Source of the DNA: Promethearchaeota archaeon
GTDB lineage: Archaea; Asgardarchaeota; Lokiarchaeia; Sigyniarchaeales; SOKP01
Direction: 5' to 3'
DNA length: 64,000 nucleotides
Assembly: GCA_048939995.1 (NCBI GenBank)
Contig: JBHLOY010000004.1
Location: 64,001-128,000, forward strand
Positions 5,284 through 39,981 of the stretch are shown piece after piece. The notes below the pieces were generated by a model, which saw nothing but the letters and a program-made list of their open reading frames with translations, did no database searches and had not been told where the DNA came from. Position numbers and translations under genes: made by a program. Position 1 is the stretch's first letter; each line of letters opens with the position of its first letter.

Positions 5284-6315
5284 ATGATCCCTTCAATTGA
5301 ATGGATAAATAACAAAGTTAAAATGATTGATCAAACTCAACTTCCTTACACTTTACAATTTCTCGAGTTTGACAATTTTAGAGATGTAGCAAATGCAATT
5401 AAGATAATGAATATTAGAGGTGCTCCTGCGATAGGAGTTGCAGCAGCTATGGGTGTAGCATTAGCAACGATTGAATATAAAGAATTACCAAAAGAAAGGT
5501 TTTCAGAAAAAATAGCTGAAGCTGCGACTATAATAAGAAAAACTAGACCTACAGCCTCTAATTTATTCTGGGCGGTAGACAGAGTCATGAAAATTGTTCA
5601 AACATATCCAGATAATCCCACTAATATATCTAATTTAGTTGTGGAAGAAGTAAAAATCATGGCGCAAGAAGACATTAATGTAAATAAAAGAATCGGGAAA
5701 AATGGAGCTAAATTATTAGAAGATGGGGACGTTATTTTGACTCACTGTAATGCTGGATCTCTGGCTACTGTTCAATATGGAACTGCTTTAGCTCCTGTTA
5801 GGACTGCTATTGAGGAGGGGAAAAAAATTAGTGTAATCGCTGATGAAACACGCCCAAGATTACAAGGGGCTAGACTAACAGCTTTTGAGTTGCAATATGA
5901 TAAAATTCCTGTAAAGGTAATTTCTGATACTTCGTCAGGATTATTGATGCGTTTAGGAAAAGTTAAGAAAGTGATAGTGGGAACAGATCGTGTAACATCA
6001 GAAGCAGTTTTTAATAAAATAGGTACATATTTGGTAGCTTTGGCTGCAAATGATAATAGCATACCTTTTTATGTAGCAGCACCAAGTTCAACATTATCAC
6101 TTCAAGAAACCATAGAGGATGTGACAATTGAGCAAAGGGATAGTAGTGAAGTAAGTCAAATCTTAGGTAAACTTCAAATCGTACCTGATGGTGTAGACTG
6201 TTTGAATTATGCGTTTGATATAACGCCTTTTCGACTCGTAACGGCGATAATAACTGAAGACGGAGTTTTTAGTCCAGAAGAATTACTAAAAAAATATAAG
6301 ATTTCAAGTATTTAA
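5284..6315 (+). CDS. mtnA: S-methyl-5-thioribose-1-phosphate isomerase (eIF2B-related family)
   Basis: DQTQLP, IRGAPAIG, RPTASNL, THCNAGSLAT, ETRPRLQGARLT and NKIGTY motifs. Alternative GTG start at 5269. Confidence 0.9.
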   Translation: MIPSIEWINNKVKMIDQTQLPYTLQFLEFDNFRDVANAIKIMNIRGAPAIGVAAAMGVALATIEYKELPKERFSEKIAEAATIIRKTRPTASNLFWAVDRVMKIVQTYPDNPTNISNLVVEEVKIMAQEDINVNKRIGKNGAKLLEDGDVILTHCNAGSLATVQYGTALAPVRTAIEEGKKISVIADETRPRLQGARLTAFELQYDKIPVKVISDTSSGLLMRLGKVKKVIVGTDRVTSEAVFNKIGTYLVALAANDNSIPFYVAAPSSTLSLQETIEDVTIEQRDSSEVSQILGKLQIVPDGVDCLNYAFDITPFRLVTAIITEDGVFSPEELLKKYKISSI

Positions 6316-6343
6316 AATATCATTCATTAACATACTGACGATT

Positions 6344-6589
6344 ATGAAGCTAGCAAAAAAAGAATCTGTTCGTTTTAGAATATTTATATTCATTATTATT
6401 GAATTTCTATGTTTAATTTATTATTATGTAATTTCAGGAATAACCGGAAACTATTCTTGGACAATAATAGAACTAACAACGACTATAGAGGGATTTCTAA
6501 TCCAAATTATAAATTTGATAGCTATAATTATTGGCTTGATTCTTGCAGTTCATATAATGATGTATATTGCTATACTTTATAGAGGATAA
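6344..6589 (+). CDS. Small two-TM hypothetical membrane protein
   Basis: 81 aa with two hydrophobic segments, directly downstream of mtnA. Confidence 0.65.
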   Translation: MKLAKKESVRFRIFIFIIIEFLCLIYYYVISGITGNYSWTIIELTTTIEGFLIQIINLIAIIIGLILAVHIMMYIAILYRG

Positions 6590-6591
6590 TA

Positions 6592-7593
6592 CTAATTCAT
6601 AGAATTTTCAAAATAAAGCTGTAATGCGTGCTTCAAATTTGTTAAATCTTTTGTTTTGGAAAGTCTCTGTCTAATTATATTAGAATCTCTAATATTTTTT
6701 GTTAACCAAATAGCGTTTCGCTTTAATTCCTTAAACTTGTATTTTTCCCTTGAATCAGGGATTAAATAGCTTTCATCAATAAATTCATCTAAACATTTTT
6801 CATAAATTTCGATAAGTCTTCTCATTCTCTCTTTGTCATTTTGAAAGGGATAAATTTTTCCATATTTTAGAAAGACATTAATTTGGTTAAAGATTTCTGG
6901 ATTTCCTATAGAACCTCTCCCAATCATAATTGCATCTACATTTGTATAATCTAAAAAACTTTTTGCAATTAAAGGATTATCTATATTTCCGTTCCCTACA
7001 ACTGGTATATTAACTCGGGCTTTAATCTGTTTAATAGTCTCAATATCTAATTTGGAATCATCATATCTATCATTAGCAGTCCTCCCATGAATAGTTAGAA
7101 ATTCAATGTTAGAATTATTGATTAATGCTGAAAATTCTGTGATATTAATTTTATCCGATATCCCCGTTCTCATCTTTAAGGATATAGGCCTGGAGGAAAA
7201 CTTAGAAGCGATATTTACAAGTTTTTTTAAAAGATCTAGATCCTGCAATAAATATGCTCCCTCTTGAGAATTATTTGCTCGTTTAGAAGGACATCCAACA
7301 TTGAGATCAATAATATTAAATTTATAACTCTCAAGGAATAGTATAGTTTCTTTTAATGCCTTTAAATCGGAGCCTATCAGTTGAATACTTATTGGAATCT
7401 CTTCTTCTATCCTATACAAATCAGGAATGATGGTTTTTGGATTTTTTATAACTCTTTTAGTGTATATCATCGGGACGGAAACTAAACCAATCTTTTGAAA
7501 CATTCTACAAAATCTCCTATATGGAGCAGTAGTTACTGCTTGCATAGGAGCTAATAACAAATTATTGTCTAGATGAAGAGTTCCTAGTTTCAT
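6592..7593 (-). CDS. dus: tRNA-dihydrouridine synthase family protein
   Basis: LLAPM, QLIGSD, DLNVGCPS, TIHGRT, VVGNGNI and MIGRGSIGNP motifs. Confidence 0.92.
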   Translation of the reverse strand: MKLGTLHLDNNLLLAPMQAVTTAPYRRFCRMFQKIGLVSVPMIYTKRVIKNPKTIIPDLYRIEEEIPISIQLIGSDLKALKETILFLESYKFNIIDLNVGCPSKRANNSQEGAYLLQDLDLLKKLVNIASKFSSRPISLKMRTGISDKINITEFSALINNSNIEFLTIHGRTANDRYDDSKLDIETIKQIKARVNIPVVGNGNIDNPLIAKSFLDYTNVDAIMIGRGSIGNPEIFNQINVFLKYGKIYPFQNDKERMRRLIEIYEKCLDEFIDESYLIPDSREKYKFKELKRNAIWLTKNIRDSNIIRQRLSKTKDLTNLKHALQLYFENSMN

Positions 7594-20076: not shown

Positions 20077-20844
20077 CTAAGCCTTGGTTTTACTTTTTGT
20101 AATTTCATTGTAAATGGAGTTCCATATTTTATGGACTTTCAATCCATGGGTTGGACAATCTACTGTTATTAAAGCCCAAGGTCCTGAGTATTTTGCATGA
20201 AACAATTTGGCTTCTTGCCCACATTTAGGGCAACGAAATATAGCGTCTAGGAAATGGGAAATAGAACCATCCTTTAATCTTATTGGAAGTTCAAAATGTC
20301 TCCCTCCATGGAAAGGACATTTTTGTTTCACTAAAAATTTATCTTGAACAAGTTTTACAAAATAAATCGCACCAATAGTTCCACATTTGGGACAGTTGAA
20401 CATATTAACTAAATCTAATTGAGTCATTGAATCCAATTTCTTCCTCTTCTTTGAATTTCTTGCGAAATTTAATGGAGAACCTACAATCAAAAGTGTTCCC
20501 CCTATTATACAGACATAGGGAAAAATGAATGCTATTGAATATTGGGGGTTAAAAATTGGTAAATGCATTGCATAAAGTAATAGATATATTCCATAATAGA
20601 TCATCAACCCTCCAAGAACACATCCAATAATAACCCAAAAAATTCTGGTAGAGCGCTTACTAGGTAATATCATAGAAATTCCAAAGATAGTACAAATAGG
20701 TCCAAGAAATACACCAGTGAAAAATAACTCTATGCCCAAAATTGTATAATTATTATAAAATAATATTATAAATACATCAAAAACAATTCCTATTGACAGT
20801 AAAAGTATCCCGAATATTAAACCAACCACTTTTTTCGTTTCTAT
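20077..20844 (-). CDS. Four-TM membrane protein with tandem C-terminal zinc-binding repeats
   Basis: Four hydrophobic helices, then CPKCG..CPFHG and CPKCG..CPTHG. Probable ATA start at 20844 behind GGTGA (track GTG start 20829). Confidence 0.75.
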   Translation of the reverse strand: METKKVVGLIFGILLLSIGIVFDVFIILFYNNYTILGIELFFTGVFLGPICTIFGISMILPSKRSTRIFWVIIGCVLGGLMIYYGIYLLLYAMHLPIFNPQYSIAFIFPYVCIIGGTLLIVGSPLNFARNSKKRKKLDSMTQLDLVNMFNCPKCGTIGAIYFVKLVQDKFLVKQKCPFHGGRHFELPIRLKDGSISHFLDAIFRCPKCGQEAKLFHAKYSGPWALITVDCPTHGLKVHKIWNSIYNEITKSKTKA

Positions 20845-34563: not shown

Positions 34564-34648
34564 GATGTTCAACTTAATTTACTGATAACAAATATAATTT
34601 ATTATTTTTTATTAAGTATTAATGTAAATAAATTGAGTTGACAATAAA

Positions 34649-35614
34649 ATAACCAATCCTCAAAAAAGAAGTCAAGAGCTCGCCCAAAAATTTGGTTATC
34701 TTCCTTATATGATTGAAAGGTATATTCAATTCTTAGGTTTAGAAGATACTATAAAACTTTTAGAAGCAAATGAAAGAACATTGATTCCCTCCATTAGAGT
34801 CAATACATTAAGAATATCCCCCGCGGTTTTAAGAGATAAATTAATAAAAAAAGATTTCAAGTTAAGAGTCTTAGAATGGGTCCCTTATGGATTTGAAGTT
34901 TTAAAAACTAAATTAAACTTAGGGTCTACTCATGAATACTTACAAGGATATTATTATTTGCAAAATAAAGCATCTATGCTCCCACCAATAATTCTTGCTC
35001 CCAAACCAAACGAAACGGTAATCGATATGTGTGCTGCTCCAGGAGGAAAATCTACCCATTTAGCTCAAATAATGAATAATCAAGGAGCTCTTATTTTAAT
35101 TGAAAAGAATCCGAGGAGAATTTCTTCCTTAGAAATGAATATACGTAGGATGGGAATTACTAATTCAATCATTTTGAATACTGACGCAAGAAATATAACA
35201 GAATTGAACATTAAAGCAGATCGCATCTTATTGGACGCCCCTTGTACTGGTGAAGGGTTGATTCGAGAGGATCCAAGCAGAAAAGTAAGTAGAACTATAA
35301 CTGATTTAGAAAAAATGGCTGAAATACAGAAAAAATTATTAAATTCTGGGCTCCATTCCTTGAAAAAAGGAGGGTTCTTATTGTATAGTACTTGTTCGAT
35401 TAGTCCTGAAGAAAATGAATTTGTAATAGATGAACTTCTAAGAAGTCAGTCCAAATTTAAAATTCAGAAAATTGAAAAAACCTATGGAATTCAAGGGATT
35501 ACACATTTCAACGGAAATAACCTCTTAGACGATCTTATCTACTCTCAGAGATTGTATCCTCATCTCCATGATACAATTGGATTCTTTCTCTGCTTAATTA
35601 AAAGAATAAAATAA
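34649..35614 (+). CDS. nop2: NOL1/NOP2/Sun family RNA m5C methyltransferase
   Basis: IRVNTL, DMCAAPGGKS, LLDAPCTGEG and YSTCSISPEENE motifs. The frame is open upstream of the track ATG (34709), giving a probable ATA start at 34649. Confidence 0.92.
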   Translation: MTNPQKRSQELAQKFGYLPYMIERYIQFLGLEDTIKLLEANERTLIPSIRVNTLRISPAVLRDKLIKKDFKLRVLEWVPYGFEVLKTKLNLGSTHEYLQGYYYLQNKASMLPPIILAPKPNETVIDMCAAPGGKSTHLAQIMNNQGALILIEKNPRRISSLEMNIRRMGITNSIILNTDARNITELNIKADRILLDAPCTGEGLIREDPSRKVSRTITDLEKMAEIQKKLLNSGLHSLKKGGFLLYSTCSISPEENEFVIDELLRSQSKFKIQKIEKTYGIQGITHFNGNNLLDDLIYSQRLYPHLHDTIGFFLCLIKRIK

Positions 35615-36259: not shown

Positions 36260-36976
36260 ATGGGTATTCGAAAAATAGAAGATGATATTGACTTAGAAGA
36301 AGCAATCAAGAAAAAAGCAGCAGAGCTAAGAATTAAAGACATCCAAGCAAAAGCAGAAACAGAAAAGTTTACCAAAGAAAGGTTAAGAGAATTAGCTAAA
36401 AAGCACGGGGTTATTTTAGCATTAACTCCTGAATTGAAGGATGAAGTAAAATATTTACAGAAAGAGTATAAGATTCCTACCTCCAAAATTATAACTGAAC
36501 AAATTACAGAGCATGATGTATTAAAAAAATCTTCTAAAGTAGATCATGAAAAGCTAGGGATGCTAGCATACCAAAGAGTTCTTATGCAGAAAGAAGAAAT
36601 TGGGGCCGGGATAATTCCAATTTCAGATGTTTTTGAGATGATACATACTGGAATTTTAAAAGGGAACGTTGAAATTAAAGATTTAAAAAAGGCTTTAAAA
36701 CTATTAAAGAAAAATCAAGTAATTGATGATGTTGAGGAATTAGATTCTGGTACAATTATGATAAGATTTTTTCCAGTTCAATATACTAGTGATCAAGTAA
36801 AAGTTATAGAAGTTGCCAAAGATAAGGGTTATGTGTCATTAGAAGATGTTTGTGTCGCTTTAAATTGGCCTCAAGACAGGGCTTTAAAAACTTTAAGTTC
36901 TCTTGAACAAACTGGTATTGCAAAGTTTAGAGAATCTCTTTTAAAGGGTAAACAATGGTACTTTCCATCAATATAA
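36260..36976 (+). CDS. ESCRT-II Vps22/Vps36-like (EAP30 domain) protein
   Basis: MGIRKIE N-terminus and tandem winged helices ('GIIPISDV..DLKKALKLL', 'LNWPQDRALKTL..L..GI..QWYFP'); ESCRT locus context. Confidence 0.85.
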   Translation: MGIRKIEDDIDLEEAIKKKAAELRIKDIQAKAETEKFTKERLRELAKKHGVILALTPELKDEVKYLQKEYKIPTSKIITEQITEHDVLKKSSKVDHEKLGMLAYQRVLMQKEEIGAGIIPISDVFEMIHTGILKGNVEIKDLKKALKLLKKNQVIDDVEELDSGTIMIRFFPVQYTSDQVKVIEVAKDKGYVSLEDVCVALNWPQDRALKTLSSLEQTGIAKFRESLLKGKQWYFPSI

Positions 36977-36980
36977 TATT

Positions 36981-37877
36981 TTACTCTACCTTAATTTTGA
37001 AGGAAATTTGCCCATCCTCGGATTTAATTATTCTGCCACGTTCATTTTTTTCTAGTCGTTTGAAAATTTCAAGTAAATCTTCTTTTGGTAGGTTGCTAAA
37101 GGCTCTATTAGATTCTCTGATCTCAAATATCAAAATAGGTTCTAGTGGTGAAATCTCCATTGCCCATTCATAAATCTCCTCGGCCCAATTATCAAGAGTT
37201 TTCCAATATATCCTTAGTTTCTCTTTACTTTTTGAAAGCCATTCTGCCTGTTTTTTATCTACTAATTCCTGGGCAATTATTTCTAATGCTGTATTTCTAT
37301 CCTCAAATTTAGAAAATGGTTTTTCTGATTCTAATTTTCTTAAATATAAAATATGAAGGATTGCATATCTTGCATAATCAAAAAGGACCTTTGACCATTC
37401 ACTCTTCCATGATTCAAAATCTTTAAGATCAATTTTTTTATTAGGGATAGAGTACATGAATATATACCTTTTTTCTTCAAGCCACGGATAATCATTAAGT
37501 AATAACTCATAAGTGGAGACCTCTTTAGCAATAACACCCTCTTCTCCAACTAATTCTAATTCTATACTTTTAAGTTCCTTCTCTATTTGAGCAGAATGTT
37601 GCTTATATGCTTCTAAATCCACGTCTCCTAATGTACTTGTTAGAAAGTCCTCAATTTTGTCTAAGCGAGTTTCAATATTTTCTTCTATTGGCTTCTCAGC
37701 AATCTCAGAAGATATTTCTCCTTCAACAATATTCTCTTCTTGAGGTTTGTCCAACTCTCTTTGTCTTTTTAATTCTTTTAAACGGACTAATTCTTTCCTT
37801 AAATCTTCTAAATCTATCTCAGATTTTTCCTCAATTTCTTCCATAAGGTCTTTAGGTTTTTCTCTTTGTTCTTCCAT
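36981..37877 (-). CDS. vps25: ESCRT-II Vps25-like protein with long acidic N-terminal extension
   Basis: 'W..EWSKVLFDY', 'AEW....K..IYWKTLDNWAEEIYEWA' and 'L.K..RG.I' Vps25 winged-helix motifs; starts 1 nt after the vps4 stop. Confidence 0.85.
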   Translation of the reverse strand: MEEQREKPKDLMEEIEEKSEIDLEDLRKELVRLKELKRQRELDKPQEENIVEGEISSEIAEKPIEENIETRLDKIEDFLTSTLGDVDLEAYKQHSAQIEKELKSIELELVGEEGVIAKEVSTYELLLNDYPWLEEKRYIFMYSIPNKKIDLKDFESWKSEWSKVLFDYARYAILHILYLRKLESEKPFSKFEDRNTALEIIAQELVDKKQAEWLSKSKEKLRIYWKTLDNWAEEIYEWAMEISPLEPILIFEIRESNRAFSNLPKEDLLEIFKRLEKNERGRIIKSEDGQISFKIKVE

Positions 37878-37878
37878 A

Positions 37879-39096
37879 CTAAAATTCTCCGAATTCCTCA
37901 GCCCATTGTTGATATTTTTTCAATTCAGATTTAGTTGTCATTGGTTTTATTTTCTTAATTGTTTTCAAAAAATCTTTTAGGTTTATATCTCTCACAACTA
38001 CTTCTTTATCTGGATCTTCTAATAATCCTCCCATATCTAATTCCCTTACAGGAATCATAATTACTTCACGACATATATTAGATATGTCCCGGCCTGAGTA
38101 GCTGTCAGTACGAACAGCTAATTCAATATAATCTTCTTCTGTTAAGGCTGAATTTACTCCTGAAGTATGAATTTTAAAGATCCCTACTCTTGCCGCTTGA
38201 TCTGGAAGTGGGACATATACCTTCTTTTCAAATCTACTTAACATTGCTATATCTATATCCCATGGTCGGTTGGTAGCTCCCAGTACGAGCATTGGTCTAT
38301 CATGAGTTGATTTAACTCCTTGAATTTCTTGTAATAGCTGTGTTTTAACTCTTCTTTCACCCCCGCCTTCATGACCACTACCTCTAGTTGTGGCTACAGA
38401 ATCGATTTCATCCATAAAAATCAGACTTGGGGCTCTAGCACGAGCTAATTTGAATAGAGACGAGATTAATTTTTCGCTTTCGCCTAACCATTTACTTAAT
38501 AAGTCTGCAGATGAAACACTGAAAAAAGTTGCCTTGCATTCAGTAGCTGCAGCTTTTGCTAATAAAGTTTTTCCACACCCGGGGGGTCCAAATAGTAAAA
38601 TTCCTGACCATGGCTTTCTAGCGCCTGTAAATAAGTCAGGTTTCATGATTGGCAATACTATCGCTTCTCTTACTGCTTGTTTACAATCACCCAAGCCTGC
38701 AATTTCATTCCATTTAACATTAGGAGATTCTGTCAAGATTGTATCCGAAATTGAATCCATTAATTCTTGCTCTTCAGTGGATAAACCTCCAATTTCCGGT
38801 TTTGGTTCTCCTTCATTTGGTTCGCTGGGAGTTGATTTTGGACGAGATCTCCGAACTCGTGGACCACTTAGATGTTCTTTAAGAACTTGACCTCTAGTCA
38901 TATACTGTTCTATCTGATCTTTACATCTTCTTATCATTATTGGATTTTTATTGTATTTAATAAATTGAATAAGTATCTCCGCTGCTCTAAAATACTTATT
39001 CATTGCTTGGTGGAGATGACCTTTTTGGTCTAATTCAATTGCTTTATTTGCTTCCTCAACAGCATACTGATATAGTTTCGACTCAACTGACGAGAT
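37879..39096 (-). CDS. vps4: Vps4 AAA+ ATPase with N-terminal MIT domain
   Basis: PNVKWNEIAGL, Walker A GPPGCGKT, SKWLGESEK, Walker B FMDEID and ATNRPW. MIT helix 1 (YQYAVEEANKAIELDQKG) lies upstream of the track ATG (39003), giving a probable ATC start at 39096. Confidence 0.95.
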   Translation of the reverse strand: MSSVESKLYQYAVEEANKAIELDQKGHLHQAMNKYFRAAEILIQFIKYNKNPIMIRRCKDQIEQYMTRGQVLKEHLSGPRVRRSRPKSTPSEPNEGEPKPEIGGLSTEEQELMDSISDTILTESPNVKWNEIAGLGDCKQAVREAIVLPIMKPDLFTGARKPWSGILLFGPPGCGKTLLAKAAATECKATFFSVSSADLLSKWLGESEKLISSLFKLARARAPSLIFMDEIDSVATTRGSGHEGGGERRVKTQLLQEIQGVKSTHDRPMLVLGATNRPWDIDIAMLSRFEKKVYVPLPDQAARVGIFKIHTSGVNSALTEEDYIELAVRTDSYSGRDISNICREVIMIPVRELDMGGLLEDPDKEVVVRDINLKDFLKTIKKIKPMTTKSELKKYQQWAEEFGEF

Positions 39097-39354
39097 AATA
39101 AAAACCTCTTATTTTTAGCTTATTTTATTTTATAATATTTCAATTGTTATTTAAATTAATCTAATACCAATCTTCACTTATATTAAATATTAAATAAAAG
39201 CTATTTCAAATTTTCTTTTTCCTACAATATCAAGATATCTCCTTAACATATATTATTTTACTCAAATAACAATCGTAATTATTGGTCTACAAAAAATTAT
39301 ATAATCTCGAATTTTTTTATATAATATAAAATAACGAAAATTTGTTGAATCAAA

Positions 39355-39981
39355 ATGGGTTTTCTTAAAGATTTAAGTGGTTGGCTTTCTGGTGGAAGGA
39401 AAAAGGACACTGTACGCTCTGCAACAGTTAAATTAAAAGTTTTTAATAAACGATTAATGAGACAAACTAAAAAAATGGAAATGTCAGCGAAACTAGCAAG
39501 AGATAAAGCTGTCAAGCTTCGAAAGGAAGGTGATATGCAAGGATCAGAATTCCATGCTCGTAACTTTCTCCAAGTAAAAAAACAGAGCCGTGCAATAGAC
39601 CTCTTCCGAACAAACCTCGAAGGGATGGTCTTTAAATTAGAACAAGCTAGTGCGGTAAAAGACGTAGCTGAAATTATGCGAGGAATTGCGATGAGTCTTG
39701 GTGCGCTAAAAAATTCATTATCTATCCCACAAATTACAGAACTAATGACTCAAATTGGAGTAGATATTGAAGATTTTAACGTAACAGAAGAAATTACATC
39801 TGACGGAATAAATGATATGATGGTTGATACCGCTGTAACTGATAGTGATGTAAAAGAAGTGTTAGGTGAGATCGATGCGGAGATTGGAGCAGAAATTGGT
39901 GGAGCCTTACCTTCTGTAGAACCTGACGGAAAAATTAAGGAATTAGAAGAAGAACTTAATAAGTTAAAGTCAAGAGATTAA
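39355..39981 (+). CDS. ESCRT-III Vps2/24/46-like (Snf7 domain) protein
   Basis: Amphipathic MGFLKDLSGWL N-terminus, basic helical hairpin, acidic C-half and C-terminal MIM1-like ELEEELNKLK; divergent from vps4. Confidence 0.92.
   Translation: MGFLKDLSGWLSGGRKKDTVRSATVKLKVFNKRLMRQTKKMEMSAKLARDKAVKLRKEGDMQGSEFHARNFLQVKKQSRAIDLFRTNLEGMVFKLEQASAVKDVAEIMRGIAMSLGALKNSLSIPQITELMTQIGVDIEDFNVTEEITSDGINDMMVDTAVTDSDVKEVLGEIDAEIGAEIGGALPSVEPDGKIKELEEELNKLKSRD

Follow-up and report, generated by a model that had tools for sequence, protein, structure and literature searches.

Initiation at single AUH codons (AUU, AUA or AUC) is already known in bacteria, where infC, the gene for IF3, starts at AUU and is under translational autocontrol (Butler et al. 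1987, cited in a passage of PMC4705826). In eukaryotes, eIF1 is autoregulated through the poor context of its AUG (Ivanov et al. 2010, cited in passages of PMC4705826 and PMC6237735). Discrimination against AUU by aIF1 is described for Sulfolobus (same source, PMC4705826). The start codons of archaea are given as AUG, GUG and UUG in a passage of PMC7531240, and a stronger Shine-Dalgarno (SD) motif is said to compensate for weak GUG and UUG starts in a passage of PMC5622118; neither of these two passages lists AUH as a regular start. In Ribo-seq of H. volcanii, near-cognate codons appear only among putative alternative sites, which were set aside (PMC7261190). Our literature search, whose coverage left out most subscription papers, returned no report that Asgard archaea routinely use AUH starts, or that aIF1 is autoregulated.

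The Lokiarchaeia family described here is similar to infC in that a third-base near-cognate start codon lies behind an SD motif, and in that a fidelity factor, here aIF1, is itself AUU-started. It differs in its archaeal machinery and in involving dozens of genes per genome, including vps4, nop2 and PheT- and ABCE1-like genes. The feedback of infC is known; its aIF1 counterpart here is a proposal. The family aIF1 and eIF1 are homologous factors with weak start sites of their own; however, eIF1 uses an AUG in poor context and scanning, while the putative start of the family aIF1 is a non-AUG codon positioned through an SD motif. AUH starts share SD register and spacing with standard archaeal starts, and the weaker codons bear stronger SD motifs.

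The vps4 locus and other putative AUH starts in the window

The window is a stretch of 64,000 nucleotides (positions 64,001 to 128,000 of contig JBHLOY010000004.1) from a Promethearchaeota genome, referred to below as G000. The vps4 gene (37879..39096, minus strand) is flanked by a divergent ESCRT-III gene of the Snf7 family (39355..39981, plus strand; Pfam) and by ESCRT-II genes (36260..37877; EAP30/Vps36 family on the plus strand, Vps25 on the minus strand), all with ATG starts. Counted from the ATC discussed below, its product has 405 residues, and Pfam detects MIT, AAA ATPase, lid and Vps4_C in the full frame, as expected for a Vps4. Asgard Vps4 has the same MIT, AAA and Vps4_C organization in an ESCRT-II/III locus (PMC7240154); only the start codon differs here.

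Read along the minus strand, an in-frame TAA (39109..39111) shuts the vps4 frame upstream, followed by the SD motif GAGGT (39104..39108), which pairs with the 16S tail of relatives, a 7-nt spacer and the candidate start codon ATC (39094..39096). The first in-frame ATG is at 39003, 31 codons past the ATC, and no ATG, GTG or TTG is found in frame from the TAA to this ATG, so that no canonical codon precedes the essential N-terminal sequence. The 31 codons (39004..39096) correspond to helix 1, at the N-terminal end of the MIT domain. The Pfam MIT model (PF04212) matches residues 14–78 of the stop-to-stop frame with an E-value of 1.4e-9, and the match disappears when the product begins at ATG 39003. 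The claim of the first-pass annotation that MIT needs these codons is thus borne out, and its proposal of a non-canonical start is supported: in an alignment with 73 orthologues, a check it had called for, the ATC coincides codon for codon with their starts (58 ATG, 13 TTG and 2 GTG), and it also lies at SD distance.

Two other genes in the window have the ATA codons that had been reported as starts. The nop2/RsmF gene (plus strand; Pfam RsmF) has a putative ATA start at 34649..34651 behind an SD-like GAGTTGA with one mismatch (34635-34641), and its first ATG is at 34709. The start slot is ATA, ATT or ATC in 17 of 19 distinct orthologues, which argues that nop2 swaps among AUH codons yet avoids ATG. 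A membrane-protein gene on the minus strand has a putative ATA start at 20842..20844, the SD motif GGTGAT at 20855-20850 and its first GTG at 20829. In a relative (G010), both the SD motif and the ATA are kept, and the downstream GTG is GTA.

Such starts had been predicted to truncate automated annotations systematically. This is the case for most callers: proteins of the vps4 cluster are 352–386 residues long in Logan/JGI calls, and the NCBI calls for nop2 (301 residues) and the membrane protein (250 residues) are shortened. It does not extend to vps4 in NCBI, where the cluster is called at full length (405/406 residues).

AUH codons behind SD motifs in the genome and the family

In G000, we scanned ORFs 100 or more codons long in which an SD match lies ahead of the first canonical codon. 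Motifs of the type GGAGGTGAT, to which the 16S tail of relatives is complementary, are enriched ahead of ATG starts. Among 450 SD sites that match at 5 or more bases, a canonical codon is within reach in 317 and absent in 133; 78 of the latter have an in-frame ATH (ATT, ATA or ATC) 3–7 nt from the register. ATH codons peak in frame at a distance (d) of 5 from the SD register, the same as canonical starts. Against a baseline of in-frame positions 12–35 nt away from the register, ATH is found at start distance in 81 of 200 cases with an SD of at least 5 bases, compared to 13% farther out (p=3e-22), an excess of ∼63 genes. With at least 6 bases, the figures are 41 of 77 and 12.5% (p=1e-17), giving an excess of ∼36 genes next to 89 canonical ones; ATH is the putative start of ∼29% of strong-SD genes.

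At d=4–6, the observed (expected) counts are 34 (8.4) for ATT, 23 (6.3) for ATA, 10 (2.7) for ATC and 4 (0.6) for CTG. The three ATH codons are enriched about equally, 3.7–4-fold, ATT being the commonest AUH start. Only these four codons are clearly enriched, and GTH, TTH, CTH and AAG show no enrichment at this distance; general NUN initiation was considered and ruled out on the lack of enrichment of GTH, TTH and CTH. Where an orthologue could be fetched, 10 of the 12 testable AUH candidates align with a canonical or an ATH/CTG codon. An EM start-site model gave 6.9% ATH for the whole genome and 0–2% for 300-gene subsamples; since this estimate is unstable, the firm figure is a lower bound of at least 2% of the 3222 ORFs. 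At the sequence level, it is confirmed that at least ∼60 genes per genome have an ATT, ATA or ATC behind an SD motif as their predicted start. The suggestion that AUH starts are routine in this lineage therefore stands, with an excess above background in the genome as well as in the family.

In pooled samples from the family (G008, G019 with G010, and G145 with G078), AUH accounts for 20 of 122 cases with an SD of at least 5 bases and 8 of 31 with at least 6. The corresponding numbers are 11 of 242 and 2 of 72 for five other Asgard genomes and the Clostridium plasmid pSOL1 (31% GC), taken as small control samples of 150–400 kb. The difference is significant (p=2.5e-4 and p=9e-4, respectively), with the reservation that the family samples are small too and that related genomes are not independent. 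An Odinarchaeia-like genome of another family (G041, f5; L284-L293) has a few SD-led ATT or ATA candidates, 4 of 46 with an SD of at least 5 bases, and AUH starts may thus exist outside the family at a lower rate.

Switches between AUH and canonical starts in G000 and G008 go in both directions. Six genuine AUH-versus-canonical pairs were detected by homology and chosen by eye out of antisense shadow-ORF noise; in each of them, the SD motif of the AUH allele is the stronger one. These comparisons support AUH use as a trait of the whole Lokiarchaeia family. A restriction to the clade with the vps4 ATC was rejected, as G008 and genus g14 have AUH starts of their own.

Several individual genes in G000 outside the window were also noted. 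The small subunit of a hydrogenase-like enzyme (C13:242250-244314, plus strand) has an SD-led ATC start that G019 shares. In the large subunit, whose first canonical codon comes 95 codons in, GTA stands in place of the ATG of G019; since GTH is not enriched genome-wide, this GTA may be an isolated case or an error. SD-led ATT starts are seen in an ABCE1/RLI-like gene (C5, minus strand, ORF 5482-7291 in reverse-strand coordinates), whose orthologue in G078 has ATG at this codon, and in a PheT-like gene (C28, minus strand, ORF 455596-457279 in reverse-strand coordinates), both named by N-terminal likeness only. A flavodoxin-like gene (C16, 15499-15961, plus strand) has CTG where four orthologues show ATG or GTG.

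Initiation factors and initiator tRNA

The gene for aIF1 has an ATH codon as its putative start in all 63 family sequences (57 ATT, 4 ATA and 2 ATC; L119:1426-1428 and 62 other loci in L111-L140 and L314-L363). This codon always lies 6–7 codons ahead of the first cysteine. No in-frame canonical codon is present in 54 of the sequences, and the nearest one in the other 9 is a GTG inside an SD-like motif. The relatives therefore have a gene for a fidelity factor in which a putative non-AUG start is conserved. ATA is also the putative aIF1 start in genus g5 of family f2 (L126, L133), and in several other Asgard archaea no canonical start lies ahead of the zinc knuckle of aIF1 (L181, L186, L187, L196, L198). 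As non-AUG aIF1 starts occur in some other lineages, the aIF1 start alone does not explain what is special about the family.

The first-pass annotation had suggested that the initiator tRNA or the initiation factors might carry fidelity changes. This was not borne out in the relatives: no Sui-type change was found in their aIF1, aIF2-beta, initiator tRNA or anti-SD, where subtle changes are possible. The zinc knuckle and basic loop 1 of aIF1 align normally with solved archaeal aIF1; the initiator tRNA has a CAU anticodon and the three canonical G-C pairs; and the 16S tail GGAUCACCUCC (G008, G017 and G145) is a canonical anti-SD complementary to the SD motif. In several genus members (L303, L305, L306, L308, L312), the initiator tRNA gene appears to be split beyond the anticodon arm, in the variable or T region, probably by non-canonical introns; the gene at L309 is uninterrupted.

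The G000 assembly, listed at 98% completeness, lacks the genes for aIF1, aIF2-beta, initiator tRNA and 16S rRNA. In relatives these genes form one linked block of about 27–37 kb, and we read their absence as an assembly gap, since the neighbors of the block are missing as well. Loss of aIF1 as the cause of AUH use was rejected on account of this gap and of the presence of aIF1 in clade members G019 and G021. The genes for aIF1A, aIF2-alpha and uS9 are present in G000, all ATG-started, and aIF1A has two paralogues (C37:42804-43010 and C38:57760-57966).

Readings of the vps4 start and a proposed mechanism

We favor, with a probability of about 85%, the reading that vps4 is intact and that the ordinary initiator Met-tRNA starts its translation at AUC, as part of a family-wide, SD-anchored tolerance of third-base mismatches.

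A further possibility, compatible with this reading but going beyond it, is that AUC was selected to lower or regulate the Vps4 level relative to ESCRT-III. The codon is kept in 10 of 10 genomes of its clade (10 distinct sequences), TTG, also weak, is fixed in another clade, and the neighboring ESCRT genes mostly retain canonical starts. Yet most orthologues have ATG, and the invariance of ATC is weak evidence of selection, because 4 of 24 internal isoleucine columns in the clade, as well as 12 of 119 four-fold columns, are likewise invariant. The SD motif, moreover, is strengthened alongside (GAGGT in the ATC clade, AGGT in the TTG clade, and no clear SD in many ATG-start lineages), which would offset any attenuation. 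We regard such tuning as unlikely for vps4; a tolerated substitution is the more likely explanation, and the switch looks like an SD-compensated one fixed once in a clade. The start codon of vps4 is labile, whereas AUH is kept in nop2 and aIF1, where it is probably a selected feature conserved across the family.

Instead of being admitted by relaxed proofreading, the codons could be recognized by an initiator tRNA with a modified wobble base, or be edited to AUG in the mRNA. Modified-wobble reading of AUH by an initiator tRNA has a mitochondrial precedent, and the near-equal enrichment of the three ATH codons is what a third-base-blind reader would give. This appears quite improbable given the canonical tRNA gene, the enrichment of CUG, a dependence on strong SD motifs that fits weak near-cognate pairing, and the three edits needed for three different codons. 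Slightly less plausible still is initiation at the in-frame ATT at 39099, just upstream of the ATC. ATT is the commonest AUH start in G000, and one NCBI protein of the cluster is annotated from this codon (406 residues), but it is the ATC that aligns with ATG. The ATT also follows the SD register by just 1 nt, compared to the usual 3–8 nt, and is ACT in G021, which favors ATC.

Initiation at ATG 39003, with the upstream codons as a relic and a protein lacking MIT helix 1, has very little to recommend it beyond the fact that this is the only canonical start and the one used in Logan/JGI calls. The methionine is not conserved, the first ATG of a sister subclade being codon 52, and no second vps4 orthologue was found in G000. 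In Asgard Vps4, ESCRT-III is bound by the MIT domain, a bundle of three helices (PMC7240154). In 71 distinct orthologue segments, the 31 upstream codons contain no stops and have 688, 379 and 1283 mismatches at codon positions 1, 2 and 3, indicating that they evolve as coding DNA under purifying divergence. As judged from these comparisons, vps4 almost certainly begins at ATC rather than ATG. An error for ATG, conceivable in a metagenome-assembled genome, has a negligible chance, as the identical ATC occurs in 10 independently assembled genomes and errors would also yield AAG, ACG and AGG, which show little or no excess at SD distance; the ten genomes form one clade (SH-aLRT 99 in a quick tree, 84–100% protein identity), indicating that the ATC is a single old substitution.

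In the favored reading, the SD duplex would fix the 30S subunit so that the codon ∼5 nt past the SD register is placed in the P site, where Met-tRNAi of this family would accept a third-base mismatch (AUU, AUA or AUC; more rarely CUG) and methionine would presumably be the first residue. Initiation would be slower than at AUG, offset by a stronger SD motif, and the tolerance would be good enough for dozens of genes, some of them essential, to depend on it. Its cause stays a matter of inference, since no change is seen in tRNAi, the anti-SD or loop 1 of aIF1. Because AUU is rejected by aIF1 in Sulfolobus (PMC4705826), an aIF1 whose own gene starts at AUU would hold down its synthesis as IF3 does, and could thereby determine how stringently every AUH gene is initiated; we give this proposal, drawn by analogy, an even chance. 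More tentative is the wider scheme, in which AUU, AUA and AUC form a regular fourth class of starts for several percent of genes and aIF1 serves as a feedback dial through which nop2, vps4 and genes for translation and redox functions are regulated together.

Gene callers restricted to ATG, GTG and TTG shorten at least ∼60 proteins per genome, including the eukaryotic-signature protein Vps4, and proteins shortened in this manner are open to misreading as domain loss. Leaving out AUH genes, which have the strongest SD motifs, may also bias the view that SD motifs are rare in Lokiarchaea. An Asgard family with putative AUH starts in essential genes is a test case for the way start-codon stringency was established before AUG became strictly required in eukaryotes. 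If true, the proposed control by aIF1 would parallel, in archaea and within the lineage closest to eukaryotes, the stringency control exerted by IF3 and eIF1.
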